From Rhodanobacteraceae bacterium ZG21-1 (GTDB lineage Bacteria; Pseudomonadota; Gammaproteobacteria; Xanthomonadales; Rhodanobacteraceae), in contig JAJEJU010000023.1 of NCBI GenBank assembly GCA_021390615.1, positions 356,686-420,685 on the forward strand: a stretch of DNA of 64,000 nucleotides, written 5' to 3'. Position 1 is the stretch's first letter. Every line of letters begins with the position of its first letter. Both the position numbers and the translations under genes were made by a program. Positions 41,217 to 64,000 of the stretch are shown here, in pieces. The notes below the pieces were generated by a model that was given only the letters and a program-made list of their open reading frames with translations, did no database searches and was not told where the DNA came from.

Positions 41217-41292
<76 letters not shown>

Positions 41293-41721
41293 CCCCCTCC
41301 TCGCGAACCGCTCTCTCAAGCGAATCGCCCATCCCTTGAAACCCTGGTGCGGCACGGTTTCTAAGATTTGCCCCTTGGACTTCAGCCTTGCGCAATCCGG
41401 CGAAAATTTCGCCAGATTCTTCACCTTCGCTCTCCGTTTCTCCGTCCCTCTGGACTTGGCATTCCAAAGACCATTGGCATTCCAAAGACCAAGGGATGCT
41501 TGACGTGTCCGGTTGGAAATCAGCGCACTACGCCTGGCTCCGGGACAGCAATTCCTGCGTCACACCTACGCAGCGAAAGATGCAACCGGCGTCATCGCGG
41601 GTACTCAAGCGCAGCAACAAGGAGCCCAAGCTGACATCGGGTATCTTGTGTTTGAATGAACTGCCAGCTACTCCCGACACCAAGCGGACATTGCCAGGAA
41701 GAGGCCTCAGGGACAGGGAAT

Positions 41722-42039
41722 ATGACCCATATTGCCGAGACGCTTTTTAAGAACAGGGAATCAACAGCGACACCCGCCTCAATAGCCGATCAACTCGGCA
41801 GGCTGGTCTGGCAGGGCGCAGATAACGGTGCCTCCATTCACAGAGCATTGGAAGGCTGGATCGAGCACGGCGACGAAGAGCGTGCGGCCATCGCAATCGC
41901 CTATGACGAGGCCCTGCTGTTTGGGTCTCTGGAGCAGATGATCGCGATGCTCGATCGTCTGGCCGTTCGGCTTCCCAGGCTACGAACTTCTATCGAATTC
42001 CGACGGAGCTGGCTCCAGGAGAATTTTTCCGGCCCCTGA
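41722..42039 (+). CDS. Hypothetical protein (island cargo)
   Basis: The ORF begins MTHIAETLFKNREST... with an AGGGAA ribosome-binding site. It has lower GC than the host and no motif. Confidence 0.4.
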   Translation: MTHIAETLFKNRESTATPASIADQLGRLVWQGADNGASIHRALEGWIEHGDEERAAIAIAYDEALLFGSLEQMIAMLDRLAVRLPRLRTSIEFRRSWLQENFSGP

Positions 42040-42094
42040 TCCCCGCCGTCAACCCGAAGCAGACATCACAAATATAGACTGGAGAGTCGTACGC

Positions 42095-42475
42095 ATGGCC
42101 TCGGACGAGATTCAAGCCTTGAAGTTGGCGCTCAGCGCCGCCTCCTCCCGTGGAGCCCCCCATCGCACTTCCTACTTCATTGCATCTAGTGATGACGAGT
42201 GGGTCGTTTATGTTGAGGCCTCACTGAGTTTCCGCATCAGTCAATCAACGGGAATGCTGATTCCCGACGATCAACGTCTGGATGCCGCCGAGGCACTGAG
42301 CATTGCTCGCGCCTATGCCGTCGATCATCAATTGAGATGGGAGCCGGCGTTTTCGCTCGAGCCGACACGCAGCGGTTGGAGAGTAGGAGCCCGCCAGAGT
42401 CAGTTCGGTGGGCAGCTCTCCATTGAGGTTTGCTCCGACGGTCGCGTCTTAGAGCATCGAGTGAACCCCAAGTAG
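42095..42475 (+). CDS. Hypothetical protein (island cargo)
   Basis: It is a 126-aa ORF with a GGAGAG ribosome-binding site and lower GC. Confidence 0.4.
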   Translation: MASDEIQALKLALSAASSRGAPHRTSYFIASSDDEWVVYVEASLSFRISQSTGMLIPDDQRLDAAEALSIARAYAVDHQLRWEPAFSLEPTRSGWRVGARQSQFGGQLSIEVCSDGRVLEHRVNPK

Positions 42476-42608
42476 TCAGTCCGACAGTTAGGGCGTCTGG
42501 AAGTGTTAGTTGCTCGGGTGGATAAGAACGCCAGGCGCGCTTCCGACCCGAAGCGTACAAGACCGAGATGTATCTTGATGGCCGATCAATCGAGCATGGA
42601 AATCGACG

Positions 42609-43079
42609 ATGGTGACGCAGTCTGAGGCCATTGCGGCCGTGGATCTGGCATTTGGCTCAACGCCCAAGCCCGATCACTTCACGAACTACACCCATTGCGA
42701 AGAGTGCGCCGAGCACGACGAGCTGCTTAGGAACCGCACCCGAGAAACGCTGGCCATCCAAGATGTCGGGAATCCCGGCTGGGAGCCGCTGTGCTTCTCA
42801 AGCCCTGAAGGCATCGCGTTCTACATGCCTTCGCTGGCTCGCCTGGCGTTTGCAGAGCCAGCTTATGGCTATGACTGGTACGGCGAGCAGTTGCTGTTCC
42901 ACCTCTATTCCGGTGGATTGAACAATGAGCTCTACATGTACTGCAACGCAAAGCAGAGAGAGGCCGTTGCAATCCTCATCGGGGCGATGATCGAGTTAAA
43001 ATTCGCTGACATCGAATCAAGTGCCAGCGAAGATGAGTTCCTCCGCGCGCACGAAATTTGGTCGTACGGTAGGTCTTGA
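42609..43079 (+). CDS. Hypothetical protein (island cargo)
   Basis: It is 156 aa and contains HCEECAEHDE. It has lower GC. Confidence 0.4.
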   Translation: MVTQSEAIAAVDLAFGSTPKPDHFTNYTHCEECAEHDELLRNRTRETLAIQDVGNPGWEPLCFSSPEGIAFYMPSLARLAFAEPAYGYDWYGEQLLFHLYSGGLNNELYMYCNAKQREAVAILIGAMIELKFADIESSASEDEFLRAHEIWSYGRS

Positions 43080-43204
43080 CGAGCAATCCATCTGGTTGCG
43101 GAACGTTCCTTTTGACTGCGCCTGCAGCCGGTCGGCGCAACACGCCATAGATACCTGTTGGCCAATATCAGCGACGTGGGGCATACATCACAACGAGACA
43201 CCGA

Positions 43205-43903
43205 GTGAAAGCCATCCTTGAAATCGCGCTCCTTCTCGGAGCCGCCATCTCCGCAGCCCACGCAAGCCCAGCGCCAACCAATCAGCCTCAGGTGGGGTAC
43301 CAGGTGCCGGCCTCCTGGAAACTGCTGAAGAACGGCGGTCCTGACGACAAGGATCGCACGGTGATGTACGAGGTCCTGAAAGGCGCAGATTCCGGCGATC
43401 ACCCCACCGTGATAATCAAGACCCACGCGGTACCGCCTGGCCTTCGCGCGGACGACGTCGATGTTGCCGAAGTAGCCCGACAGGTCGTTCCGTCCGGCGC
43501 ACCAGTCAGCGATGTCCACGACGGGCCGAATTGGAGAACCTGCGTCTTTCTCGGTCACGTCGACAACGCCAAGATCGTTGCTCTCTATCGCATCGGCCTG
43601 CAGGATGGCGAAGCCGTGGAGGCGGTGTTTATTTTCCCCCTGCCCAATGGCAAGCCCGAAGAGCTTGCCCTGCTGACCGTCGACGGTCAGGCTGACGAGC
43701 AGGGCCGGACAACCGGTGTCTACGCACCGCTGCAGAGCACGTACGAGATGATTTCGATATTCAACGATTTCACGAAGACGCTGACCATCAACGGCAAAAC
43801 GTCTTTCCACGCCAGGGCGGTCATGGCCAAACCAACGGAGAAGCCCACTGCGGTCTATCGCTGGATCGACTCCCCCGCCAGTTCAGCTTCTACCGGCGGC
43901 TGA
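43205..43903 (+). CDS. Secreted hypothetical protein (signal peptide)
   Basis: It has an N-terminal signal peptide MKAILEIALLLGAAISAAHA with an AHA-SPA cleavage context. It is 232 aa with no motif. Confidence 0.5.
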   Translation: MKAILEIALLLGAAISAAHASPAPTNQPQVGYQVPASWKLLKNGGPDDKDRTVMYEVLKGADSGDHPTVIIKTHAVPPGLRADDVDVAEVARQVVPSGAPVSDVHDGPNWRTCVFLGHVDNAKIVALYRIGLQDGEAVEAVFIFPLPNGKPEELALLTVDGQADEQGRTTGVYAPLQSTYEMISIFNDFTKTLTINGKTSFHARAVMAKPTEKPTAVYRWIDSPASSASTGG

Positions 43904-43969
43904 TCCTTGTCCTCAACGCTTACGATACCCGCGGCCATTTAATACACCGCCGTGGCGAGAGACTCGACC

Positions 43970-44404
43970 ATGATTCCTAGTGACATCGCTGAAGAACTGA
44001 CGCTTCGCTTCTCCGAAGCGTCGAAGGAATGCGACAGATCGCTTCGGGTGGTGATGACTCACCAAAGCCTGGGCGAAGTGAAGGTTCTTGGCAAACTGGT
44101 GGCCGACTTCATGGGGCACAGCTATCTGAACATACTCAAGCCCATCTGGGCTGCTCATCCAGAGCTCGAACCGATAGAAATGAAGGCGCCCTATAAGCCA
44201 CCTGTGGCGGAGCTCGCTCCCGAATCACGTGAGGCGCTTCAAGCGTTCCTGGCGGCAGCCCGATCCAGCATCGAACTTGCGAAGCAGCATATTCCCGAGG
44301 ATGAGCAGAAATCCTTATTTGCCTACGGCGGCATGGATGAAGTCGTCAAGGCTACCGAGGCGATCGCGGACTTCTTGGCGAACCCGCGCTTTCGGGACTC
44401 ATGA
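43970..44404 (+). CDS. Hypothetical protein (island cargo)
   Basis: It begins MIPSDIAEELTLRFSEASKECDRSL... and is helical. It has lower GC. Confidence 0.4.
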   Translation: MIPSDIAEELTLRFSEASKECDRSLRVVMTHQSLGEVKVLGKLVADFMGHSYLNILKPIWAAHPELEPIEMKAPYKPPVAELAPESREALQAFLAAARSSIELAKQHIPEDEQKSLFAYGGMDEVVKATEAIADFLANPRFRDS

Positions 44405-44461
44405 CGACGCACAGCCATGTCCGTTTCGTCCCAATGCGGAGAGGCTTCAAAAGGGAATGAC

Positions 44462-44740
44462 ATGACCGGCCACAACGACAGCCAGCTGATGGATCAGGGA
44501 AAGCACTTATTGGGCTCGACACTCACACATCGAGCATGGACGCCGGCGCATGCCGATGAGGATCATGACCATTGCACGCTGTGCTGGGCCAAATTTTCGA
44601 ATCTCGGCGCTCCGCGCGAGCTGAAGTCTGGATTTTGTACCTCGGACGGCCAGCACTGGGTTTGCCGGGAGTGCGTGGACCATTTCAAGGCCCGCTTTCG
44701 GTGGCTACTGGTCGACGCCATGGATGTGCGCGCTTCTTGA
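44462..44740 (+). CDS. Small Cys/His-rich (zinc-ribbon-like) hypothetical protein
   Basis: HDHCTLCWAKF...CTSDGQHWVCRECVDHF suggests a C4/C2H2-type metal site. An AAGGGAATGAC ribosome-binding site lies upstream of the ATG at 44462. Confidence 0.4.
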   Translation: MTGHNDSQLMDQGKHLLGSTLTHRAWTPAHADEDHDHCTLCWAKFSNLGAPRELKSGFCTSDGQHWVCRECVDHFKARFRWLLVDAMDVRAS

Positions 44741-45547
44741 GCTGTCCGCTTCCGCCCCGATGCAGACCCTGGCGATCACTTTGAAGCACATGAACGGACT
44801 GGCTGAACCCTTGGTTCGCGGCCATAGATCTGTCTTGAGCCGTTGTACTGGCGCAGGAACGTAGATAGCCATCAAGGCCCGATGGGTGATGCCTCGCATG
44901 GCGGGCCGGCCGAACCCATCGCGTGCGGCCGTGGTGGCGGCGCCTCCATTGAATGGATGAACAGCACCGCGCAAGTAGCGAACGCGCCGCTTACTTGAAG
45001 CAAGCCCCAGCAACGACGCCCCTGACCGGCCGGCGCCCGCGCTCATGCATCACTGGAAGCATGGCTCATGAAGGTCATGGTGCCGCAACATCAGGCTGCC
45101 AACCTTCCGATCGTTGTGGGATGGCGCTGTCGGTGATCGGCGAGCCTGTCTTCGCTCGCGTCCCGATGCGCCCCGGATCAGATCCGTCTCCGCATGCAGT
45201 TCTTCTTCTCTACCGTGCTCAGACTGAAGCGCGCACGCCGGAAGCGCAGCTCCTCTCGCGCCATCTTTGCCAGGGCATCTTCCACAGGCAAGCCCGCCAG
45301 CGCGGAGCCGGAATGCACCAGCCGATATCCGTCGAGATTCACGATCCAGCGCTTCACTGCTCGCGCGTGAAGGCTGCAGAACATTGGAGTGCGCTAAGCT
45401 TGAGGCTGGATGAAGTTCATCGCGAGGGGATCCCGGCCATACGAATTGAAATTATTTCGATGCGTTCTTTGCATTGAAAACCGGGATCGCGTCCAATTGC
45501 ATTAGATTAATCAGGCCAAGCTCTTTGATTTCCCAAGAGGATAAATC

Positions 45548-45898
45548 ATGTCCGAAACTCCACTACCGCCCGTACCGGCGGCACTCCGTGAAGCACTCAA
45601 GAACTATCCGGAATACCTGAGCCGCTTGCAAGATACGCTTAATACCCTGATTCGCGAACCAGCCCCTGGCGTCGATCCTTTTGAGCGGGCAGTCTGGCTG
45701 CTGGACGGCCAAATCGAGGCCTTCTATCACGAAGCGCAATCCGAACTGAATGCCGCCCGGGCCGGCGGAGATGCCAGGACTGTCGAAGCCGCAAAAGCCA
45801 AATCCACGTTAATGATACAAGCCGGCTCAAAAGCTTCGTGGATTGCAGATAAAGACCTTTCAGACTATATCCGCGACCACCGGAGGGCATTCTCATGA
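45548..45898 (+). CDS. Putative epsilon-like antitoxin of zeta-toxin TA pair
   Basis: It is a 116-aa helical protein. Its stop overlaps the toxin start (TCATGAGT, ATGA coupling). It has an AGAGGA ribosome-binding site, and its upstream region has TTGCATT direct repeats. Confidence 0.5.
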   Translation: MSETPLPPVPAALREALKNYPEYLSRLQDTLNTLIREPAPGVDPFERAVWLLDGQIEAFYHEAQSELNAARAGGDARTVEAAKAKSTLMIQAGSKASWIADKDLSDYIRDHRRAFS

Positions 45899-47196
45899 GT
45901 CTTGTCGGAGAGATACTCCCGGTTGACCCGATGGAACGCATGAGGAAGTCGCGTCTTCCGGAGGAAGAGCACAGGCAGGTTTTCAGGGATCAAGTCCTGA
46001 ATTCAAGCGGATTTCCGCAGGCCCAAAAAGTAGATGAAAGCAGCCAGCCCAAGGTCATCATCCTGGCCGGACAACCTGGCGCCGGCAAGGGCAACCTTAC
46101 GGCTGCCGCACAGTCCGAGCTTGCATCCAAGGGAGGAGCGGTAACCATCGATCCGGATGAGCTTCGGCGATTTCACACCAACGTTGAAACATTCCGCGAG
46201 AAAAGCCCTTATACGTGGGCGGACGACACTCAGCTGGATGCAAGCGCCTGGGCCAAGTCTCTACGCGACGAAGCCATCAATGGCAGGAAGAATGTCATTC
46301 TGGACACCACGCTCGGCGAGCAGCAAAAGGCCATTGAACTGGTCGAAATGTTTCAGAAAAAGGGCTATGCGGTCGAAATACGAGCGATGGCCGTACCACA
46401 GAGCGAGAGTGAGCTCGGCGTCGACAAGCGCTTCACTGACGGCCTCGTCAGAGAAGGCTTTGGTCGTTATGTGCCGGAAAAGCTCCGGGACGACGTCTAT
46501 AAAAACCTGCCGTCCGTCCTCGACGCCGTACATGACGAATCGCTGAAACCGGAAAGTCGCTTCAAAGAAGCTATCAAAATTAGCGTTTATGACCGCGGAA
46601 GCTTTGAGGCAGACCGCCTTCACCCAACGCCTCGATATAGCCAGATAGCCACCGAGGCTCGTGATGACAAACCTGGCCAGGCCATGGACAAGGTCCGCAC
46701 GGATCGAATGAATGACCCGCAGGTCGCAAGCCAACTCAGAGATGGCTGGGCGGCTCAAAAAGATTGGCATGCAAAACTAGAAACCAACCTGCCGACCTTT
46801 GATAAGGTCAAGCAGGATTCCAGAGCTCCCTTACTCCAGGAATTGGCTCTGGAAAAGGTGGCCGACAGTGTCAACAGGCGCTTTGAAGAAGCCGAGAGGC
46901 ATCTTTCCTCCGTGAAGGAAAGGCAATCACCATCAGAAAGCCCATCGCAACCCAAGAACGAACTGCTGGAAAGAGTTCAAAACATGAGGGAATCGATGCA
47001 GAGCGGCCATTCGGTCTCTGTGAGCGACATTCATGGCCTTGTCGATCCCGTGCAGGGAGCGCAACTGCATAGTCAATCTCAGAGCGCCGTGGATTTGCAG
47101 CAAACCCTTTCAAAGCCAAGTCCGGATCGTTCGCAGACGCCCGAAGTTCACGTAACGCCGGAAACCCCGAAAGATCAGTCGAATGTTCGCAAGTGA
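45895..47196 (+). CDS. Zeta-toxin family P-loop kinase (PezT/zeta-like) with long C-terminal extension
   Basis: A Walker A motif (ILAGQPGAGKGNLT) is followed by TIDPDELRRFH (catalytic Asp context) and VILDTTLG, matching the zeta/PezT UDP-GlcNAc kinase core (about 270 aa). An additional ~160-aa S/Q/E-rich low-complexity tail follows. It has lower GC. Confidence 0.7.
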   Translation: MSLVGEILPVDPMERMRKSRLPEEEHRQVFRDQVLNSSGFPQAQKVDESSQPKVIILAGQPGAGKGNLTAAAQSELASKGGAVTIDPDELRRFHTNVETFREKSPYTWADDTQLDASAWAKSLRDEAINGRKNVILDTTLGEQQKAIELVEMFQKKGYAVEIRAMAVPQSESELGVDKRFTDGLVREGFGRYVPEKLRDDVYKNLPSVLDAVHDESLKPESRFKEAIKISVYDRGSFEADRLHPTPRYSQIATEARDDKPGQAMDKVRTDRMNDPQVASQLRDGWAAQKDWHAKLETNLPTFDKVKQDSRAPLLQELALEKVADSVNRRFEEAERHLSSVKERQSPSESPSQPKNELLERVQNMRESMQSGHSVSVSDIHGLVDPVQGAQLHSQSQSAVDLQQTLSKPSPDRSQTPEVHVTPETPKDQSNVRK

Positions 47197-47958
47197 TCCA
47201 TAGGATTCAGTGACCATTGGGCGCGCGGAGATCTTCCGCGCGCCGCTTTCATCTATGCAGTGCTCTCTTTGACCGCAAGGCTTTTGAGCTGCACTCGAAG
47301 CCGAGCCGCCTTGGGCGGAAATTTTCGTCCGGATTTAAGCCAGCTGCGAGATCCGCCGCCCACTGCCTGGATCAAGTCGCGCTGCGCCTGGCGGCTCGCC
47401 CCGGGCGAGGATTCCGGCTCGTCTTCAGTGGATATCAACGGATCGAGCGAGCATCGCGCTCGAACTCGCATGGATGCCCAGATCGTGCCCGACCGTTCTT
47501 TCCAACCTGGGCAGGACCGTTCGGCCGGACGGCGGCAACCATCGCCCATGAAATCGCCGATGAATATGCCGCTGCCCTGCCGATCCCATCTCTGTGCGAA
47601 AGCGGCGCCCAACCCCAGCAAGGCCAGAACCGCAGCGAGTACCGATGCCAGGCCCGATTGGCGGTGCCGGCCGGCGCGGTTCAACCGGCTTGCCGGCAGC
47701 ATGCTGTCTTGCACAGTTAGCCGCGACGATTGCGGCGAGACTTTCGCCCAGGCGGAGCGCTGCATCCTCGATCTCCGCGACCAGGGGGTTCGCCGACATG
47801 CACACCGACGATGCACGATCCGGGACTCGCTGCCTGTGCGCGGCATTTGCCGCCGCGCCACGGCACCACAACACGTGCCGTGTATCGGCCCAGCCAAGCG
47901 CATCGTCCTCGGCGCGCCTGGCGCTGACTCCGCCCCCGACCTGTCCGTCGCCGATCCG

Positions 47959-49257: not shown

Positions 49258-50511
49258 TCAGCTTGTCCGGGTCGCCTCCACCGGCGATACGCGCGAGGCG
49301 CGCATGGCCGGCGCCAATACCGCGCCCTGCCCCAGCAGCAGCAGCAGCAGCATGCCCAGCAGGACGTAAAGCGGAGACAGGCGCTTCATCTCGAAGGCGC
49401 CCATCATCCATTGGTTGAGTCCGACGGCCAGCAGGGCGCCGACGATCACGCCGCCCGCACTGATCAGGAAATTCTCCAGCAGGAAGTAATGCAGGATGCT
49501 CTGCTGAGTCGCTCCCAAGGCGCGGCGCACGCCGATCTGCTTGCGGCGCTGGCCGACCCAGAAACTGGTCAGGCCCACGATGCCGGCTGCCGTCACGATC
49601 AGCAGCACGGCGCTGACGGCGCCCATGAAGGTGGCGATGCCGATATCGGTCTTGTAAGCCTGCGCGCGCACCTCGGCGAATGTACGCACACCGCGGCGGT
49701 CCGGGATCACCCGCATGCGATTGGTGCGGAACAGCGCCTGCGGCACGCTCTTGCTGATCGCTTCCAGTTGGCCCGGCTGCGCCCGCACCAGATAGACATT
49801 GCGCTCGTCGGTAAGCTGGATCGGCGTCAACACGACATAGTCGCTGAATGCGTCGGTCCAGCTGCCGGGCCAAGGCACCTGCAGCTGCTCGACCACGCCG
49901 ATCACCGTGCTCGGCGTGCCGTTCTTGATCAGATAAATCGACTTGCCGAGGATGCTGCCGCCCGGATACAGGCGATCCGCAAGCGCCTTCGTGACGATCA
50001 CCGCCGGCGTGGGAACGAAGGTCTTGGAGTCGGCAGTGGCCACTTCGTCCGAGCGGAAATTGCGCCCTTCCAGCAGCCTGGCCCCCAGCGTCGCCAATGC
50101 ATGATCGTCGGTGGAGTACTGGGCCGCCCTGGTGATCGCCTTGTCGGTCGCCGGGTCCAGCCTTACGCCGGTCACCCGCCCGCCCACTCGCAGCGGAAAG
50201 GAATCGCTGAGCGTCGCGTCGCGCACGCCGGGCAGCTGGCGAATCGCCGCCAGGTCGGTGCGGATCAGCGCAGGCACGGCGTCGTTGCTGGCGCCGACCC
50301 AGCTGTTCTCGATCGCCAGCAGGCCGCTTTCTTCCACCCCGGAGGGGCGCGATATCCGATCGACCCGCTGCTTGATGATAAACAGGGCGTTGCAGACGAC
50401 CGCCAGGGTCAAGGCGATCTGCAAAGTGATGAGAATGGTGCCGGCCTTGTGCTTGCGCAGCGCGGCAAGGATCGGCTCGATCTGCAGGGTCACGGTTTGC
50501 CAGGTCATCAA
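49258..50511 (-). CDS. FtsX-like ABC transporter permease (MacB/LolCE-type topology)
   Basis: It has an N-terminal transmembrane helix (ILITLQIALTLAVVCNALFII), a large periplasmic domain and three C-terminal transmembrane helices with a conserved RRALGAT segment (RKQIGVRRALGATQQSIL). Confidence 0.8.
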   Translation of the reverse strand: MMTWQTVTLQIEPILAALRKHKAGTILITLQIALTLAVVCNALFIIKQRVDRISRPSGVEESGLLAIENSWVGASNDAVPALIRTDLAAIRQLPGVRDATLSDSFPLRVGGRVTGVRLDPATDKAITRAAQYSTDDHALATLGARLLEGRNFRSDEVATADSKTFVPTPAVIVTKALADRLYPGGSILGKSIYLIKNGTPSTVIGVVEQLQVPWPGSWTDAFSDYVVLTPIQLTDERNVYLVRAQPGQLEAISKSVPQALFRTNRMRVIPDRRGVRTFAEVRAQAYKTDIGIATFMGAVSAVLLIVTAAGIVGLTSFWVGQRRKQIGVRRALGATQQSILHYFLLENFLISAGGVIVGALLAVGLNQWMMGAFEMKRLSPLYVLLGMLLLLLLGQGAVLAPAMRASRVSPVEATRTS

Positions 50512-50518
50512 CGCATCC

Positions 50519-51832
50519 TCAATTCGACTTCAGCTGCCATGCCGGCTGCACTTGTGCCGCCCGCCAGGTGGGATAGAAGGCCGCCAGCAGCGTGGCCACG
50601 ATCGCGACCAGCAGGGTCAGCGCGATCAGCACCGCGTCGAGCCTGACCAGCCTGGCGATGTTCGGATCGAAGACCAGACCAACCCCGAGCATGCCGGCGC
50701 CGGTCAGCAGCAGGCCCAACAGGCCGCCTGCCGCACCGATCGTCCCCGCCTCGATCAGGAATTGCTTGTAGATGTCGTTGCGCGATGCGCCCAGCGCGCG
50801 CCGCAGGCCGATCTCTCCCGATCTGCGCAGGCTCTTCGCCAGCAGCAGGCCGATCGTGTTGACCAGGCAGATCAGCAGGAAGCCCAGCGACACCAGCATG
50901 GACATGCGCGATTCGGGGGGTACCACGTGCCGGTCGGCCAGCCACCGGGTCACATCGCTCAAGCGCACGTTCGGCGCCCAGTGGAAGCGTCCCGCACGCT
51001 GCTGTTCGGCGGCATAGCCCTGCAGGAACTGGCGATAGGCATCCGCCTCGGATGCGCTGGGCAGCTCCGCCCAGAACGCGATCCACACGCACTCCGAACG
51101 CAGAAAGTCCTCCCATCCGCTGCCGGTATCCTGATTGCACGCCGTATCGCCGGCAGTCGGCATCTGCAGATCGATCGCGCGGGTGAACGGCACGAACAAC
51201 TGCACCGCATCGCTGAAGCCCGAGGTGTTCACCGGATCGAAGAACAGCGGCTGCGGGTTCCAGGTATCCATCACGCCGGTGATCCGATAGTCCCGGCCGT
51301 CCAGGTTGATCGTGCGCCCGACGCTGTTGGCGCCGCCGAACAGGCGCTGATTAGTGTCGCGGCCGATCACCGCCACCGCGGCGTGCGCCTGATCGTCCGC
51401 CGCCGTCCAACCGCCGCCGTATTCGAAGGGGATATCGAACATCGCGAAGGTGTCGGCGTAGGCCGCATAGCTCAGCGGACGGAAGGGCAGCCGGTTCGGA
51501 TCGCTGGGCACCAGAGACGGCGCGATCGGGAACAGCGCGGTCTGGCGCGGCGCCTTGTGCGCCAGCATCAGGGCCGTCGCGTCCGCATAGCTCAACGCAT
51601 CCGGCGGATCGCCCCCGTTCTCGGCCGCCCTGGCGGGGCCCCAGTTGTCGATCTGGGGCGCGAACAACTGCGCCGATTTCTGCGGGATCGGATTATTGGA
51701 GGTGGCGCGAAAAACCGCATAGCTGGTGATCGAAGCCGATACGCCGAAGCCCATGGCGATAATCATCAACAACGTCAGTGCCGGGTTCCGACGCAAACTG
51801 CGCAGCCCAAGACGGGCGTAATAGGCAAACAT
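50519..51832 (-). CDS. FtsX-like ABC transporter permease (paralogue)
   Basis: It has the same architecture: LTLLMIIAMGFGVSASITSY..., a periplasmic domain and ...EIGLRRALGASRNDIYKQFLIEAG... It is 8 bp upstream of the paralogue, and no ATPase gene is adjacent. Confidence 0.8.
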   Translation of the reverse strand: MFAYYARLGLRSLRRNPALTLLMIIAMGFGVSASITSYAVFRATSNNPIPQKSAQLFAPQIDNWGPARAAENGGDPPDALSYADATALMLAHKAPRQTALFPIAPSLVPSDPNRLPFRPLSYAAYADTFAMFDIPFEYGGGWTAADDQAHAAVAVIGRDTNQRLFGGANSVGRTINLDGRDYRITGVMDTWNPQPLFFDPVNTSGFSDAVQLFVPFTRAIDLQMPTAGDTACNQDTGSGWEDFLRSECVWIAFWAELPSASEADAYRQFLQGYAAEQQRAGRFHWAPNVRLSDVTRWLADRHVVPPESRMSMLVSLGFLLICLVNTIGLLLAKSLRRSGEIGLRRALGASRNDIYKQFLIEAGTIGAAGGLLGLLLTGAGMLGVGLVFDPNIARLVRLDAVLIALTLLVAIVATLLAAFYPTWRAAQVQPAWQLKSN

Positions 51833-51927
51833 GAAAACTCCCTTGGCTGATCTCTATCGCCCGCTGTCGCCGCACCAGGCCGGCTGCACACCCGAGGCTT
51901 CGACATGCCGAAGCCTCGCGGCAAGCC

Positions 51928-53571
51928 TCACAGCACCAGCTCGCTGCAGCCGTACAGACGCTCGGACTCGATGCCGTTCGAGGCGCAATACTCGACGAAA
52001 CTATTGGACTCGAGGATCTGGATGCTGTCGGGCTGGTACTGCAGGCCCATCAGCGCGCGCAACCACGGCTCCTGGCCCATCGCATAGACGTAGGCGCGCG
52101 ACGGCTTGATCTTCGCCACCGCATTCCTGGCCCGCTCGAAATTCGAGCCCGACAGCCGGCGGGACTCGTCGTCCTTGCGGCTGGGCTGCCGATTCAGCAG
52201 CGGCCCGTACAGCCAGGTCAGCGGCGCGCCGTGGCATTCCATGCCCAGGAACACCACGTCGACGCGACCGAGCACGCCGGCGAGATGATCGAAAATCCTT
52301 TCGTCGACGGTGTCCGAGTCGGCCATGAAGAGCAGCCGCTGCCCCGCCAGTTCGACCAGCAGGCAGTGCTTGCTGAGCACGTCGAGGCCCGAGTGCTCGC
52401 CGATGAACGGCAGGCTGGTCAGCGAACCGCCCGGCAGCTCGATCGCGTCCAGTGGGTCGACCACTCGCACGCGGCGGAAGCCCAGGGTCGCGAGCATCAG
52501 CTTCAAGGACGGATCGGCGACATTGCCGGCATCGTTGCGCGGCACGATCACCTCGCCCACGCGCTCGCGCAGCTGCAGCAGCATGTCGGGCACCAGATGA
52601 TCCTGATGGCCGTGCGTCAGCACCAGATAATCGATCTTGTCCGGCAGGTCGACGAAGGTCAGCGTGGCCTCCTGCTGGTCTCGCTCCCATGCGGTCAGCG
52701 CATCGATCAGGATGGCCACGCCGGCCGCCTCCACCAGTACGCAGGCATGACCGAAATACCTGATGCGCAGGCCCTGGCCGTCGAAGTTCGGCGCATTGCG
52801 CCCCGGCGCCTGGTTGGTGAAGAAACGCTCGAAGCCGCCTTCGTCGACCAATTCCGGCGGCAGGCTGGCGCGAATCTCGGCGGCGCTCATCGGCTGGTAG
52901 CGCAACTTCGCCAGCAGATCGACCCGCTCGTCTAGGAACGGCATCTTGAGCACCACCCGCTCGGGCGACTTCAGCAGCGGCGTGCTCATGAAAAAAGTCC
53001 GCTCGATCGAGCGCGTGGTATGCACGCAGATTTCCTGCAGCTCGGTGGTATGCGCCCGCCAGCGCTGATACGACAACTCTTCGAGCACGCGGATCTTCGG
53101 GTGGCTGTTGATGTCGTAGGTCAGCTCCACCAGGCCGCGCAGCGAGTCGGGAACCTGGGCGTAGAACTCGTCGAGACAGAAGCCCTTGGCGCCGCCCTGC
53201 AGCTTGAGGTCGAACTCCTGGAAATCCTGGGCGATTTTCAGCAGCTCGCCGCCGCGCCCGTGGATGTCGTCGATCAGCTCGCGCACCGCCGGAATGTCGC
53301 TCATCGCCAGGCAGACGAACGGCCCACCGAGCATGTCGGGATCTTCGGCGGCGGCCACATGCACCGACGGACTGGCGACGAAGGACTTCAGATTCGGCAG
53401 CTGCCGGTTGGCCAGATTCATGGCGTACTGCAGTGGCGGCAGCAGATGCGGCCAGGTCGGCCAGCCGCACATCAAGGGTTCTATCTTCACGTCCGATTTC
53501 AGATACCACTGATCCTTGCCCGGCGAAGCCACTTCGCCGGACGCCGTCGTCTCACCGCTTACGCGCTTCAT
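51928..53571 (-). CDS. MBL-fold metallo-hydrolase with ~300-aa N-terminal extension
   Basis: The C-terminal half has the metallo-beta-lactamase motif set (...[15 protein letters not shown]...[11 protein letters not shown]...FIGEHSGLD...). The N-terminal 300 aa match no recognisable domain. A GGAGA ribosome-binding site is present, and its ATG overlaps the NRPS stop by 4 bp. Confidence 0.8.
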
Positions 53572-56500
53572 GCCTGTCTCCTGTCTACATTTCTGACCAG
53601 CTGGATCAGCGTGGATTCGAAGCTTCTCGCCAGCTTGCGCAGCGTCTCTTCGTGATGCAGCTGATCGCTGTATATCCACGAGCAGCGCAGCACGTCGTCC
53701 ACGAAAACCGTCTGCAGTTCGATGTCATTCCTGCGCATGGCGCGGTCCGGCAGCACATAGACCGGGCCGTCCGGCAGGGGGATTCTTCCCAGCAGGCCGG
53801 CCGCCTGCGACGGCGCCTTCTGCTCGCCCTGGTGGTTCAGACACAGGGCACAGGCCTGCCAGTCCATGCCGCGCTCGAAGCGCTGCGCGGCGCTGGCCCA
53901 GTAGGCCAGTCCGGCCGCGTCCGCACGCTCGCCCTGGACGACGATCTGCCGCACCAGCGTGGCCAGGTCGCGCGGGCCGCGGAAATCGATCGTCACCGGC
54001 ACGCCGGCGGTGAACCAGCCGACCGAGCGCGAAAGATCGCCCTGCAGATGCAGTAGTTCGCGCCCGTGGAACAGCTGCTCCACGGCGACGGCGTCGTGCC
54101 CCGTCCACAACTGGATCGCCTGCGCGAGTGCAATCAGCAGCAAGTCTTCGACGCGTATGCCCAGCTGGCTGGCGGCGGCCATGCAGGCCTGCGGCGAAAT
54201 CTCCGGCGCCGATACGACCAGCCACTGCGTCGACGCGACGGTGTTGTTTCCGGCCGGATGATCCTTCGGCAGCGGCTGCTGCAAGGATGCCTCGCGCGCC
54301 GCCCCTTCCAGCTCGGCCTGGCCTTGTGCGGTGGCGAAATGCTCGGCGACCGCGCGCGCCCAGGCCGAGAAGCTGGTGCCCGGCGGCGGCAGCTGCGCCG
54401 CAGCGCCTTCCTCGCACTGCAGGCAGAGCTGCTGCAGCTCCTCGGCAAGCACCGGGTACGACAGCACGTCGTTGGCGAAGTGATGGATCGCCAGCACCAT
54501 GCGCTGCGGCCGGGCATCGCCGTAGTCGAACAGCACCGCCTTCAGCAGGCGGCCCGACGCCAGATCGATGTCGCGCCGCAGCTGATCGATCTCGCCGGCC
54601 ACCCGCAACGACAGCTCCGGCTCGGCGACGGCCGAGAGATCGACAACGCTGCACAGGGCTTCCGCAGGCGTAGGCGCCGGCCCTTGTCGTTGCTGCCATG
54701 ACCCGTCGCTCTCGGACACCACCAGGCGCAGCGCGTCATGGCGCGCGACCAGGGCGTGCAGCGCCTTGCGCAGCGCCTCCGCCGACACGCGCCGGCTCAA
54801 TTCGTAGTGGTAGGTGTTGGAGAGTATCGATATCTCGTCCCGCCACAGGGCGAGCATGATGCGTTGCACCGGCGTCAGCGGCACGCGGTCGTCCTGCACG
54901 CCCTGCTCGACGGTCGCCGATGCGGGAGCGGCTTCGGCGACCTTCACCATCGCCGCCAGCTCGGCGATGGTCTGGTAGCGGAACAAGTCCTTGGGCACGA
55001 ACACCATGCCTGCCCGCTTGGCCAGGCTGACCAGCTGGATCGCTGTGAAGCTGTCGCCGCCGAGCTCGAAGAAATTCTCGTCGATGCCGACCTGCTCGCG
55101 CTTCAGCAGCTCGCAGAACAGGCCCGCGAGCAGCCGCTCCTGCGCTGTTCTCGGCTCGCGCCGCGTGGCCGCTGCGAGATCCGGCGGCGGCAGCCGGTGG
55201 CGATCGACTTTGCCGTTGGCACTGAGCGGCAGGCTGTGCAGGGCGACCACGACGGCCGGCACCATATGCTCCGGCAGCTGCTCGGCCATGAACTGACGCA
55301 GCGTTGCGGGCACGGCGTCCTGGCCGGCCGCCGCCACGGCATAGGCGACCAGTTGCTTTTGTCCGGGTCGATCTTCGCGCAACAGCACGGCTGCCTGGGC
55401 CACGCTGGAGTGGCGGGTCAGACAGGCCTCGATTTCGCCCAGCTCGATGCGGAAACCACGCAGCTTGACCTGGTCGTCGGTGCGGCCGAGATAGTCGAGC
55501 CGCCCGTCGGGCAGCCAGCGCACCAGGTCGCCGCTGCGATAGAGCCGGCTGCCGGGCGCACCGAAAGGATTCGCCACGAAGCGCGAAGCGCTCAGGCCCG
55601 GGCGATTCAAATAACCGCGGGCGAGTCCGTGGCCGGCGATATAGAGCTCGCCGGGCATGCCGGCCGGCACCGGCTTCAGCGCATGGTTCAACACATACAC
55701 CTGTGTGTTCCAGATCGGCCGGCCGATCGGCACCAGGCCCTCCCGATGATTCTCCAGGCGCACCTCGTGGAACACGCAGCCGACCACCGTCTCGGTCGGT
55801 CCGTACTCGTTGACGATGCAGGCGTGCGGCGAATGCGCGAACCAGTCGGCGACGGTCGCAGCCGGCAGTGCTTCGCCGCCGACGACCACGTGATGCGCCA
55901 GATCGACGCCGCTCGACGACGACAGCAGCTGATTGAGGATGGCGAGCTGGGCCGGCGGCAGTTTCAGCAGGCTTAGTCCGCGCGGGCCGTCGGCGCCGGC
56001 GAGGGTTTCGAACTCCTCCGACTCCGGCAGCAAGGTGACCGCCTTGCCGCAGAGCAGGGGCAGGAACAGGCTGGTGACGGTGGCGTCGAAGGACAGCGAG
56101 GTACTGATCGCCGCTCCCGTTCCCTGCTCCATCTGGTAGGCGGCGGCAGCCCAGGCGGCGTAGTTGTGCAGCCCGCCGTGGGTGATCACCACCCCCTTCG
56201 GCCTGCCGGTCGAGCCCGAGGTGTAGATCACGTAGGCCGGATGCTGTGCGCCGGCTTTTGCGGGAGGCGCGCTGGCGGGCTTGCGCGCGATCGCGGGCCA
56301 ATCCAGGTCGAGCATGATGGCCCGTCCGCGATAAGCCGGCAGCCTGCCTTCGGCGGACTCGACGGTGAGCAGCACCGGCGCCAGCGAATCCTCCAGCATG
56401 AAGGAGATGCGCTGGGTGGGATAAGCCGGGTCGATCGGGAGATAGGCGCCGCCGGCCTTCAGGATGCCCAGCAGGCCGATCACCATTTCCGGCGAGCGCG

Positions 56501-58184
56501 GCACGCACAGCGCGACGACGATCTCGGGCCCCACGCCCGACCGCTGCAGGTAATGCGCGAGCTGGTTGGCCTGCTGATCCAGCTCGCGATAGCTCAGCGT
56601 GCGATCGCCGTGGATCAGCGCCGCCGCGTCCGGCGAACGCTGCGCCTGCTCCTCGAACCACTCGTGGATGCGCCGTTCGCGCGGAAACTCCATGCCGGTG
56701 GCATTCCATGCCTGCAGCAGGCGCAGCCGCTCGTCCGGATTCAACAGCTCCAGCTGTTCCAGCGGCTGCTCCGGGCGCGCGACCACTTCCTGCAGCAGCC
56801 GGCCGAAGTGTTCGACGAAACGCTCGATCGTCGGCGCGTCGAACAGATCGGCCGCGTATTCGAGGCCGCCGCGGAAACCTTCCTCGGTTTCCCCGATCAC
56901 CAGAGTCAGGTCGAACTTCGCGGTGACATGCCGCGAACCGATCAGCTCCAGCTGCAGATCGCCCAGCTCGAAGTTGCCGGCGGCGCCGCTGCGCAGTTCC
57001 ATCAGCACCTGGAACACCGGCTGGCGCGACAGGTCGCGGGTCGGCGCCAGTTCCTTCACCAGCCGCTCGAACGGAAGATCCTGGTTGGCGTAGGCGGCCA
57101 GCGCGGTCTCCTTCACCTGGTGCAGCAATGCCCTGAAATCCTTCGCCCGATCCAGCCGCGCCCTGATCGCCAGCGTGTTGACGAACAGCCCGATCATGTG
57201 TTCCGTCTGCGGGTGTGTACGGCCCGCCGTGGAGGTGCCCACCACCACGTCCTGCTGTCCGCTCCACTGCGACAGCGCCAATTGGAAGGCCGCCATCAGC
57301 AGCATGAACAGGGTGACTTCTTCCTGCTTCGCCAGTCGCGCGACGGCGTCGCTCAATGCCTTGGGCAGGACGATCGGGCAGGTGCCGCCCCGATGGCTCG
57401 GCACCACCGGCCGCGCACGATCCGTGGGCAGCTCCAGCACCTCGGGTGCGCCGTCCAGCTGCTTGCGCCAGTGCTCCAGCTGCCGGGCCAGCGCCTCGCC
57501 TTCGGAAGACCTGCGCTGCCACAGCGCGAAGTCGGCGTATTGCGCGGCCGGCTCGGCAAGCGGCGACGTCTCGCGGCGGCAGTAAGCCTCGTAGAGGCTT
57601 TTCAGTTCCCGCTCCAGCACGCCGTTGGACCAGCCGTCCGAAATGATGTGGTGCATCGCCAGCGCCAGCACGTGCTCCTTCGGCCCCAGCCGCAGCAGGC
57701 TCACTCGGAACAGCGGGCCGCGCGCCAGATCGAAGGGGCGCAGGAATTCCTGCCGCACGAAGGCCGGCAGCACGTCGCCGTCGCCTGCGGCGGCCAGCTC
57801 GTCCACGCTGCGCCGCAGAATGGAGAAATCCTCCGCGCGCCCGATCAGCTGATGCGCCTGGCCGTCCACCGCGTCGAAGCGCGTGCGCAGGCTCTCGTGG
57901 CGGCGCACCAGTTCGCGGAAGCTGTTTTCCAGCGCGTCCTCGTTCAACTCGCCCACCAGGCGCATGGCGATGAACATGTGGTAGGCCGAGCCCACCAGGC
58001 CCATCTGCTCGACGAACCACAGCCGCTCCTGTGCATACGAAAGCGGCAGCCGCTCGCCCGGCTGGCGCAACCCCTGCAGCGAACCCGCCGCCGCGCCGGC
58101 CTGCCGCGCGTTCCTGCGGCTCGCCAGCTGCTTCAACTGCTGCGGCGAAAGCTGGGCGATGCGATCTGCGATGGAACCGTTCAC
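53568..58184 (-). CDS. Non-ribosomal peptide synthetase module C-A-T plus terminal condensation-like (Ct) domain, no TE
   Basis: The C domain has HHIISDGWS (HHxxxDG). The A domain has [51 protein letters not shown] and [20 protein letters not shown]. The PCP has [15 protein letters not shown] second C-like domain with HHFANDVLS sits at the C-terminus. The protein is 1538 aa. Confidence 0.92.
53571..54887 (-). other. Terminal condensation-like (Ct) domain of NRPS (approximate)
   Basis: It spans aa ~1100-1538 ([10 protein letters not shown]...[11 protein letters not shown]...). It shows a C-domain fold signature downstream of the PCP in place of a thioesterase. Boundaries are estimated by residue counting. 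Confidence 0.6.
55185..56672 (-). other. Adenylation domain of NRPS 53568..58184 (approximate)
   Basis: It spans aa ~505-1000 from the A1 (LSYRELD) through the A10 region. The A4 segment is [10 protein letters not shown] and A5 is [12 protein letters not shown]. Substrate is not assignable by eye. Confidence 0.6.
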
Positions 58185-61100
58185 GCGTATTTCTCGCTGC
58201 TGGTGGTTTCGCTCACGGCTCGGACATCGCGGGACTGACCATCCAGCACGACGGCGGCGTCGCCCGCCTCAAGAGTCTCCAGGTAGGCGCCCATGTCGCC
58301 TTCGTCGATCTCGTCGGCGAGCTGCGCCACGATCTCTTCGGCCAGTGCCTTGACCGTGCCGCTGGCGGAAATCAGCACCTTGGGCGAGATCCGCACGCCG
58401 TACTCGTCCCTGATCCGCGAGATCACCCGCAGGGCGATCAGCGAATCGCCGCCCAGCGACATGAAGGTGTCGCTGCGACCCACGGCATCGATGCCCAGCA
58501 CTTCCTCCCACATCGCCGCCATGCTGGCCTCGAGCTCGCTCCAGCCGCTGGCGATGACGGGCGCCTGCACCGGCGCAGCCTGCAGCGGCGCCTCGGTGCG
58601 CGAAGCCGCGGGCTGCTCGTGCACCGGCGCCTCGCGCTTCCTGACCTCGATCCAATAGCGCTGGCGCTGGAACGGATAGGCCACCAGGCCCACCCGCGAA
58701 CGCCGCTCGCCGCGATGAAAGGCCTGCCAGTCGACGGCTGCGCCCAAGGTCCACAGACGGGCCAGCTGCCCGAGCAGCGCGCTGCGGTCGGACGAACCAT
58801 CGCTAGCCAGCGATCCCACGTAGGCATGCTCCGGCGCGCTGCCGAACTGCTGCCGGGCCAGGCCGGTCAGCGCCTGGCCGATACCCAGCTCGAGCCAGAT
58901 CGTCGGACTGCCGCCGGCAGCGGCAGCCAGAGCCGCCTGGAAATCCACCGGCTCGCGCAAGTGACGCGCCCAGAACGAGGCCTCCAGTGGCGCGGTCGCG
59001 CTCACCGGCGCACCGGTCAGGCACGACACATAGCGGATGCCCGGCGTCGCGTAGCGGCAGGAGCGCGCCGCCTGTTCAAGCCCGGCCATGGCCGGCTCCA
59101 TCAGGCGCGAGTGGAACGCATGCGACACCGACAGCCGGTGATGCTCCACGCCGCGCGCGGCGAGCGTGGCGGCCAGCGCGTCGATCGCCGCCGCAGGCCC
59201 GGACAGCACGCACTGCGTCGGCGCATTGATTGCAGCCACCGACAGTGCTTCGCCCAGCAGCGCCTGCACCTCGCCCACCGGCAGTCGCACCGCCAGCATG
59301 GCGCCGGCAGGCTGCTCGCTGACCAGCTGCGCCCGGCGCGCCAGCAGCGCCACCGCGTCATGCAGCGAAACGGCTCCGGAGATGCAGGCCGCGATGTATT
59401 CGCCGACGCTGTGCCCGACCACCGCGGCGGGCTTCACACCCCAATGCATCCACAGCTTCGCCAGGCTGTAGCCCACCGTGAACACGGCAGGCTGGGTGAA
59501 CAGCGTGCGATCGATGGATGCCGCCGCCTCCGTGCCGGCCGGCGCGCAGATGACGCTGCGCACGTCGAAGCCCAGGCGCTCCTGGAACAGCGCCGCGCAC
59601 TCGTCGATGCGGGCGCGGAAGTAGGCGTCCGTGTCGTACAGCGCCTGCACCGCTCCCGATCGCTGCGAACCCTGCCCCGGGAACATGAAGACCACCGGGC
59701 GATCCACATGCTGGTCGTGCACGTCCTGGGCCGCCACCGCCTCGTCGCGCAGGGCGCGGATCAGTTCCTCGCGATGCTTCGCCACCACGCTGCGCCGATG
59801 GGCGAAGCGGCGGCGGCCGCGTTGCAAGGTGTAGGCCACGTCCGCCAGATCCAGCTGCGGCCGCTCCTCGAGGTGGCGCGCCAGCGCGGCGCCGAGCTGC
59901 CGCAGCGCTTCGCCGGTATGCGCCGACAGCGGGAATACCTGGGCGGAGGGATCGGCCGCCGATGGCGCCGGCCGGGCCGGCGCTTCCTCCACCACCACGT
60001 GCGCATTGGTGCCGCCCATGCCGAACGAGCTGACGCCAGCGCGGCGCGGCTTGCCGTCGCTGTGCCAGGGCGCGTACTTGGTGCTCACGTAGAACGGGCT
60101 GGTGGGGGATTCCAGCGCCGCATTCGGCCGGCTGAAGTTCGCCGACGGCACCAGGTGCTTGTGCTTCAGGCACAGCACGGCCTTGATCAGCCCGGCCACG
60201 CCCGCCGCGCAGTCCAGGTGGCCGATGCTGCCCTTGATCGAGCCCAGCGCGCACCACTGCTTGTCGGCCGTGCCGGTGTCGAAGGCCTCGCCCAGCGCGG
60301 TCAGCTCGACCGCGTCGCCCAGCACGGTGCCGGTGCCATGGCCTTCGAGCATGCCGATGTCGGTCGGCTGCAGCTCGGCGAAGGCCAGCGCCGAGGCGAT
60401 CAGCCGCGCCTGCGCCTTGATGCCCGGCGCGGAAAATCCGGCCTTGTCGGCGCCGTCGTTGTTGACCGCGCTGCCGCGGATCACCGCATGGATCTCGTCG
60501 CCGTCGCGAAGCGCCTCGTCCAGCCGCTTGAGCACCACGATGCCGCAGCCGCTGCCGCCGATGGTGCCGGTGGCGTCGGCGTCGTAGGCGCGACAGATGC
60601 CGTCCCGCGAGGAGATGCCGCCTTCCTCGTAGATGTAGCCGCTGTCCTGGTTCAACTTGATCGACACGCCGCCCGCCAGGGCCATGTCGCTCTCGAAGGT
60701 CAACAGGCTCTGGCAGGCCATGTGCACCGCGACCAGCGAACTCGAGCAGGCGCTCTGCACCGTGACGCTGGGCCCGTTCAGGCCGAGCTTGTACGACACC
60801 CGCATGGTGAGGAAGTCTTTCTCGCCGTCGAGCGAGGTCTGGTGCCAGTTGCCCGAGTTGGATTCGATCAGCTCCTGCATGCGGGTATACAGGTACAGAT
60901 TGCTGCCGCAGCCGCCGTAGATCCCCACGATGCCCTTGTACTGCTCGGGGTCGTAGCCGGCGTGCTCCAGGCCTTCCCAGGCGCATTCGAGGAACAGCCT
61001 GCCCTGCGGATCGAGGCTGCTCGCCTGTCTCGGGCTGTAGCCGAAGAAGCCCGCGTCGAAGCGGTCGTAATCCGCGAGCGGCACGGTGGCCTTCACGTAA

Positions 61101-61277
61101 TGCGGGTTCTGGATCAGCGAGGGACTCACCCCGGCCGCGGCCAGCTCGGCATCGGACAGCTTGACGATCGAATGGCGTCCGCTTTTCAGCAGCTGCCACA
61201 ACTCGTCGACGCTCTTCGCCCCCGGAAAGCGGCCCGCCATGCCGATGATGGCAATGGCATTGGCGCTGTTTGCTTGC

Positions 61278-61285
<8 letters not shown>
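58181..61285 (-). CDS. Type I polyketide synthase module KS-AT-ACP (no KR/DH/ER)
   Basis: The KS domain has [15 protein letters not shown] (active Cys), EGHGTGT and GHLDCAAG (His/His). The AT domain has FPGQGSQ, GHSVGEY and HAFHS. The ACP has LGGDSL. The N-terminal [13 protein letters not shown] is typical of a hybrid KS downstream of an NRPS module. The protein is 1034 aa. Confidence 0.92.
58316..58543 (-). other. ACP/thiolation domain of PKS (approximate)
   Basis: It spans aa ~915-990 with GGDSL at ~945-948. Confidence 0.55.
58796..59698 (-). other. Acyltransferase domain (approximate)
   Basis: It spans aa ~530-830, with GQGSQ at ~537, GHSVGE at ~624 and HAFHS at ~722. The HAFH motif is more typical of malonyl-CoA-specific ATs (inference). 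Confidence 0.55.
59984..61261 (-). other. Ketosynthase domain (approximate)
   Basis: It spans aa ~9-434, with Cys180 in TVQSACSSS, His315 in EGHGTGT and His356 in GHLDCAAG. Confidence 0.65.

Positions 61286-64000
<2,715 letters not shown>

Follow-up and report, generated by a model that had tools for sequence, protein, structure and literature searches.

A zeta-type kinase gene and its upstream partner in Rhodanobacteraceae bacterium ZG21-1: a probable toxin–immunity module related to X-T4SS effectors and lacking the XVIPCD

The subject of this work is a pair of overlapping genes on the forward strand of a 64,000-nucleotide stretch of contig JAJEJU010000023.1 (positions 356,686 to 420,685; assembly GCA_021390615.1) from Rhodanobacteraceae bacterium ZG21-1. 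The whole stretch is referred to as the window and its own numbering is used throughout. The first gene (45548..45898) encodes a putative immunity or antitoxin protein of 116 amino acids (aa) and the second (45895..47196) a zeta-type kinase toxin of 433 aa. On balance, and with moderate confidence, the pair is read as a toxin–immunity module from the zeta-kinase clade of effectors of the X-T4SS, a type IV secretion system (T4SS) used to kill bacteria, that has no XVIPCD secretion signal and behaves like a toxin–antitoxin (TA) pair inside the producer. The 433-aa toxin would probably act within the cell that makes it, in the manner of an ‘atypical T4E’, with the 116-aa protein serving as the dedicated cytoplasmic inhibitor of the clade, either an immunity protein or an antitoxin. 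In addition, the 116-aa gene might shield the producer from related zeta effectors that neighbouring cells inject, and the toxin would ensure retention of the islet on which it lies, which was gained by horizontal transfer. Toxicity, neutralisation and substrate are in each case predictions.

The zeta-type kinase

The 433-aa gene was assigned from its open reading frame (ORF) together with Pfam and Protein Data Bank (PDB) matches. The Pfam family Zeta_toxin (PF06414) matched residues 44–223 (46024..46563) with E=9.4e-47, and PDB sequence matches were obtained to ζ (1gvn_B, E=4.6e-13) and PezT (E=1.6e-5). Residues K46, D67, E116, T118, R158 and R171 of ζ align with K65 (Walker A), D88 (catalytic), D137, T139, R179 and R191 of the 433-aa protein. 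These six catalytic columns are invariant or nearly so across the family, and because all of the residues are present at such positions the enzyme looks active. The zeta motifs quoted in the initial annotation, among them the Walker A and Asp-containing segments, are all found in the ORF, and judged by sequence the assignment as a zeta/PezT-type P-loop kinase with a full catalytic set is solid. By homology the kinase would phosphorylate a UDP-sugar cell-wall precursor, presumably UDP-GlcNAc as in zeta and PezT, and so block peptidoglycan synthesis.

An AlphaFold2 (AF2) model of the protein is confident from approximately residue 10 to residue 345. This region includes a helical extension (aa 260–344, 46672..46926) that is modelled with high confidence, is conserved in homologs and contains a W..Q..WH motif. 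Homologs cover 72–78% of the query. The remainder of the protein (aa 345–433, 46927..47193) is a Ser/Gln/Pro-rich tail ending in QSNVRK, mostly disordered in the AF2 model with a predicted local distance difference test (pLDDT) score of 38–65, except for a moderately confident helix at residues 355–369. A low-complexity tail of 160 aa had been described at first; since both fold and conservation extend to about residue 345, as seen in both the AF2 model and the homologs, only the last 90 aa or so answer to that description.

Relatives of the kinase

Homologs of the 433-aa protein were found in Lysobacter, Stenotrophomonas, Xanthomonas, Dyella and Luteibacter, to which a scan of species-representative genomes added Thermomonas, Vulcaniibacterium, Rhodanobacter, Hydrogenophaga and Variovorax. 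These taxa match the groups reported to carry a bacteria-killing X-T4SS (PMC6536674). Toxins of this family are ones that soil bacteria would normally deliver into competitors through such a system. Most genomic relatives are 750–1330 aa in length and come from Lysobacteraceae and Comamonadaceae, so that the 433-aa toxin, initially considered unusual for its length, is not unusually long for its clade. The Pfam domain PF20410 (“X-Tfes_XVIPCD”) is present at the C-terminus of several relatives (P0054, E=1e-25; P0076, E=4e-27), and an iterated XVIPCD model marks 42 of the 65 long relatives, some of them with two XVIPCDs in tandem. The toxin module of the 433-aa protein (aa ~18–333) is 35–48% identical to proteins in which Pfam or the iterated model recognises an XVIPCD. 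Zeta Toxin already figures in a list of N-terminal domains of putative X-T4SS effectors, or X-Tfes (PMC6536674, Fig. 5 legend), and no experimental study of a zeta-type X-Tfe was found in the searchable literature.

Some relatives carry additional features. Tandem XVIPCD-like domains stand at the C-terminus in loci L014, L015, L024, L071, L030, L007 and L070 and in the protein P0040. In many relatives of 580–750 aa (including P0006, P0013 and P0020) the kinase module is separated from the XVIPCD by a Gly/Ala-rich, membrane-like segment (…GGAAATVVEAATEG…GIESGPGAIVTGIIGAGLGAWG…) and, after it, a conserved W-rich region. In locus L001 (686–12937) a 1316-aa effector that combines Zeta_toxin with PG_binding_1, and has a small partner upstream, lies beside TniQ/TniB (Tn7-like) genes and a DUF1963 protein; these neighbours suggest that transposon-like elements may carry zeta–partner pairs. 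L020, a contig labelled ‘MAG: Chitinophaga pinensis’ from a Bacteroidota bin, also encodes a zeta effector of the usual Xanthomonadales type, together with its XVIPCD and partner gene. This placement is probably a binning error and otherwise a transfer event.

A single close homolog, P0002, has the same architecture as the 433-aa protein at 51% identity. Intact short paralogs without an XVIPCD also occur beside long XVIPCD-bearing ones in the same metagenome-assembled genomes (MAGs; L035/L021 and L040/L071). The short zeta ORFs in L046, L048 and L082 are fragments produced by frameshifts, each closely followed downstream by an ORF that bears an XVIPCD, and such fragmentation has been noted for X-Tfes (PMC6536674). 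These fragments favour an explanation in which the ZG21-1 gene is a decaying remnant, a long X-T4SS zeta effector that has lost its C-terminal half and is becoming a pseudogene while the orphan immunity gene is kept; the toxin gene stops some 50 nt short of the islet's right edge, in keeping with such a loss. Decay is nevertheless very unlikely to account for the locus. The 433-aa ORF is unbroken and retains every catalytic residue, and no remnant of an XVIPCD was found in any frame of the window. P0002 retains both the short architecture and a homologous tail, which indicates that the short form is old and maintained, and the coexistence of short and long paralogs in MAGs likewise argues against simple decay. 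A frameshift-detached XVIPCD fragment downstream of the toxin gene was considered separately and rejected on the same search of all frames.

The upstream partner family

The 116-aa gene, assigned from its ORF, is preceded by a strong Shine-Dalgarno sequence read directly from the DNA (AAGAGGA, 45535..45541, + strand) 6 nt before its ATG. At its other end the TGA stop overlaps the ATG of the 433-aa gene as ATGA at 45895–45898 (…ctcATGAgt…), in agreement with the initial annotation, and the 116-aa gene is translationally coupled to the 433-aa gene that it precedes. The protein has a conserved N-terminal motif, PPVP..LRE.LKDYPE, and is modelled by AF2 as all-helical with a pLDDT of 93. Comparison with Pfam, NCBIfam and PADLOC gave zero matches. 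No relationship to epsilon or PezA was detected by sequence profile or by fold, and none to Arc1. A profile search recovered approximately 100 homologs, every one annotated “hypothetical”.

To define the association with the kinase, a hidden Markov model (HMM) of the partner family was built from five members and scanned over 80 zeta loci. In 77 of these loci the gene immediately upstream of the zeta gene is a partner homolog, and at least one copy is present in all 80, with two to four tandem copies in 25. Because of this conserved upstream pairing, the 116-aa protein is regarded as this zeta clade's dedicated partner, a counterpart of ε from outside the ε family, and by analogy it would inhibit the zeta kinase. 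The pair had been proposed as epsilon/zeta. The zeta toxin with an upstream inhibitor candidate is retained from that proposal, and the identity of the partner as epsilon, PezA or Arc1 is not. Tandem partner-gene arrays typify effector–immunity loci, not TA systems.

Other arrangements of the partner family were also seen. Up to four tandem paralogs precede one zeta effector gene in L015 (8275–9989), L043 (2–2243), L009, L018, L019, L042, L064, L075 and L076. In L039 (8545–10038) several copies of the domain are fused in one reading frame, and another locus has two gene pairs in tandem.

A classical chromosomal epsilon/zeta (PezAT-like) type II TA module, maintained for addiction or stress with no link to secretion, has in its favour the zeta kinase with its intact catalytic residues, the small upstream gene with its ATGA overlap, the position on a small mobile-looking islet and the failure to detect a secretion domain. 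We consider this explanation rather unlikely, given that the partner is not an epsilon/PezA homolog by profile or fold and no omega-like or helix-turn-helix (HTH) regulator was found. No HTH or ribbon-helix-helix family was identified in the 116-aa protein or in the upstream islet ORFs, although absence of matches is not proof, and the AF2 model of the 116-aa protein gave no DNA-binding-like match. Furthermore, all relatives found sit in a clade typified by long XVIPCD-bearing effectors and partner arrays, which is not TA-like. A classical TA module overlaps functionally with the toxin–immunity module favoured here; the two differ in evolutionary origin and in predicted cross-protection.

The C-terminal tail

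The XVIPCD is a VirD4-binding secretion signal with two parts, an ααβββ core and, after it, a disordered tail rich in Gln, in the last six residues of which arginine is present, acidic residues are absent and hydrophobic or small residues occur (PMC8740702). The folded core binds the all-alpha domain of VirD4, and the core mutations F375A/V377A cut killing to <5% (PMC8740702). No match to PF20410 was obtained with the full 433-aa protein (E<=1) or with the tail alone (E<=10), and hhalign of the tail against the XVIPCD returned P=0.5. A jackhmmer search started from a validated XVIPCD recruited 64 relatives but never the 433-aa protein nor P0002. In Smith-Waterman comparisons of the tail with 69 XVIPCD-type termini the best score was 47, equal to that of shuffled sequences (47.6 ± 5.6; 105 of 200 shuffles reach 47), whereas the positive control P0005, a divergent XVIPCD that is also Pfam-negative, scored 203 against 46 ± 5 when shuffled. 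The tail of the 433-aa protein is thus not an XVIPCD by any test. With the VirD4-binding ααβββ core absent, canonical export through the X-T4SS is most likely not used.

Two further interpretations of the tail were rejected. The segments ELLERVQ..SVSD and AVDLQQ..SKPSP resemble by eye helix 1 and the last strand of the XVIPCD in P0040 and P0003, as though the tail were a shrunken XVIPCD, and here Pfam, hhalign, iterated HMMs and Smith-Waterman comparisons were all negative. A shared modular domain was likewise dismissed, since phmmer of residues 321–433 against 1.84e9 representatives returned the query itself and low-complexity, multi-stretch matches only.

Several observations weigh against a toxin confined to its producer. 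The tail is 39% identical to that of P0002 with few gaps, a level of conservation equal to that of the folded extension (40%). In both proteins the last six residues (QSNVRK here and QGGRHK in P0002) include a basic residue and no acidic one. Conservation of the tail and its XVIPCD-like basic end hint at a function, possibly export, and a purely intracellular module would not need a conserved tail. A basic and non-acidic ending was seen in 43 of 65 long zeta effectors (66%) vs 7 of 32 host genes (22%), and its occurrence in the latter makes it weak evidence. The autoregulatory DNA-binding domain that type II TA systems typically possess was also not found in the pair. The search for T4SS genes covered the 64-kb window, and lineage-level conclusions rest on two sequences, the 433-aa protein and P0002.

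The same tail could belong to an interbacterial effector that is still secreted, as a non-XVIPCD signal that is read by the X-T4SS, with or without the help of an adaptor, or by some other contact-dependent system, with the 116-aa protein a true immunity protein against attack by sister cells. The degree of identity between the two tails would suit such a role, and the basic, non-acidic last six residues fit the description of XVIPCD tails (PMC8740702). In Agrobacterium and Bartonella, C-termini that are disordered and positively charged act as signals for the T4SS (see the discussion in PMC8740702), and the tandem immunity arrays of relatives point to an arms-race setting. However, the XVIPCD core that binds VirD4 is absent from the 433-aa protein, and none of the 1.84e9 representatives carries this tail on another protein, so that it is not a shared modular signal. 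Secretion genes were not seen in the window, and Le1637, the XVIPCD-less homolog that has been studied, had no part in T4SS killing (PMC10989847). Continued secretion is therefore judged unlikely. It is decidedly unlikely that the tail is a new, XVIPCD-independent translocation signal of a minimal zeta effector delivered into rivals by the X-T4SS via an adaptor, or by another contact-dependent system, with the 116-aa protein founding a new immunity family against cell-wall-precursor kinases.

The islet and its surroundings

The pair occupies the right end of a low-GC islet of about 6 kb (41293..47250; GC 0.54–0.59) that begins directly after a tRNA-Met gene (41217..41292, + strand), which marks its left edge. 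GC at third codon positions is 0.56–0.72 within the islet vs 0.85–0.93 in the flanking host genes. At the right edge a terminator-like hairpin of 11 pairs, nine of them G-C, is located 24 nt past the toxin stop (47220..47244, + strand). Close to the left end, approximately 160 nt past the tRNA-Met gene, is a perfect 18-nt tandem duplication (two copies of TTGGCATTCCAAAGACCA, 41456–41491).

Every ORF of the islet is on the + strand. In addition to the pair there are six small ORFs (within 41293–45500), none of which was assigned to a family: 41656–42039, 42095–42475, 42609–43079 (a weak DUF6714 match, E=1e-3), 43205–43903 (with a signal-peptide-like N-terminus), 43952–44404 and 44417–44740 (Cys-rich, with weak zinc-finger matches). 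Orphan immunity genes are one possibility for these ORFs, and other cargo is another. An anti-phage defence system was considered and rejected, as PADLOC gave zero matches for the toxin pair and for the other islet ORFs.

Ordinary chromosome lies on both sides of the islet. To the left are purD, topA, dprA, def, fmt, rsmB, lipopolysaccharide genes, dtd and rpoD, and to the right an FAD monooxygenase, MacB-type permeases, a CmlA-like hydroxylase and a non-ribosomal peptide synthetase–polyketide synthase (NRPS-PKS) cluster. The latter belong to a secondary-metabolite region on the − strand (49258–63974) that comprises two MacB/FtsX-type permeases (49258–51832), a CmlA-like diiron beta-hydroxylase (51928–53679) and a hybrid NRPS-PKS with modules C-A-T-C, KS-AT-T and C-A-T (53568–63974), which extends past the end of the window. 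Neither T4SS genes (for an X-T4SS, virB1-11/virD4 including a VirB7 with an N0 domain) nor type III secretion system (T3SS) genes were seen within the window.

Comparison with known systems

Zeta kinases are familiar from the TA systems of plasmids and chromosomes, in which they are the toxins, and from AvrRxo1, which is a plant effector. Relative to zeta and PezT (PDB 1GVN and 2P5T), the partner described here is an unrelated helical family with no omega or HTH regulator, and the 433-aa protein adds a conserved helical extension (aa ~300–345) and a disordered tail of about 90 aa within a clade that otherwise has secreted-effector architectures. The epsilon1/zeta1 pair of Neisseria gonorrhoeae (PDB 6EPG) likewise comprises a Gram-negative zeta longer than the canonical form (a 390-residue chain) and a non-canonical antitoxin, and it sets a precedent for long zeta toxins.

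AvrRxo1/Arc1 (XopAJ) of Xanthomonas (PDB 4Z8Q) is also a zeta-fold kinase with a bound inhibitor and of Xanthomonadales origin, and a plant-targeted role of this kind had been raised in the initial annotation. It is highly improbable that the ZG21-1 toxin is a plant-directed type III effector of the AvrRxo1/XopAJ kind whose partner is a chaperone or antitoxin resembling Arc1. The match to NCBIfam NF041405 (AvrRxo1/XopAJ) is weak and falls below the cut-off. The plant-inducible promoter (PIP) box was found at chance level in the window (37 matches observed vs 35.3 expected), with none upstream on the + strand, and a type III context was rejected on these grounds, T3SS genes likewise not having been seen in the window. 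The family context is one of interbacterial warfare, not of type III plant effectors.

Among the close counterparts of the favoured toxin–immunity module are the zeta-domain X-Tfe/X-Tfi pairs (Sgro et al. 2019, PMC6536674), which have the same toxin module (36–48% identity over aa 1–~330) and the same upstream partner family and occur in the same taxa. The ZG21-1 copy differs from them in the absence of an XVIPCD, in its 433 aa and in a single partner gene in place of an array. An XVIPCD-less homolog of an XVIPCD-bearing effector that has an adjacent neutralising protein has been termed an ‘atypical T4E’ (Shen et al. 2023, PMC10989847), a definition that suits this locus as an XVIPCD-less homolog with a partner. 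The described example, Le1637/Le1636 of Lysobacter enzymogenes, involves a phospholipase A1 and not a zeta kinase, and its toxicity, co-transcription and binding were shown by experiment. The searchable literature yielded no atypical T4E of the zeta type.

No current view is overturned by this zeta locus. Use of zeta as an interbacterial type IV effector has so far been listed from domain scans, and the locus together with its 80 relatives sharpens the clade into a kinase module of about 330 aa, an immunity family of about 115 aa that is often arrayed, and interchangeable C-terminal delivery regions. It also raises the question of whether XVIPCD-less effector homologs are kept as TA-like modules, provide a reservoir of immunity or leave the cell by means of a different signal. 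As a natural minimal version, the XVIPCD-less copy offers an entry point to the substrate of the kinase and to non-epsilon inhibition of a zeta kinase.
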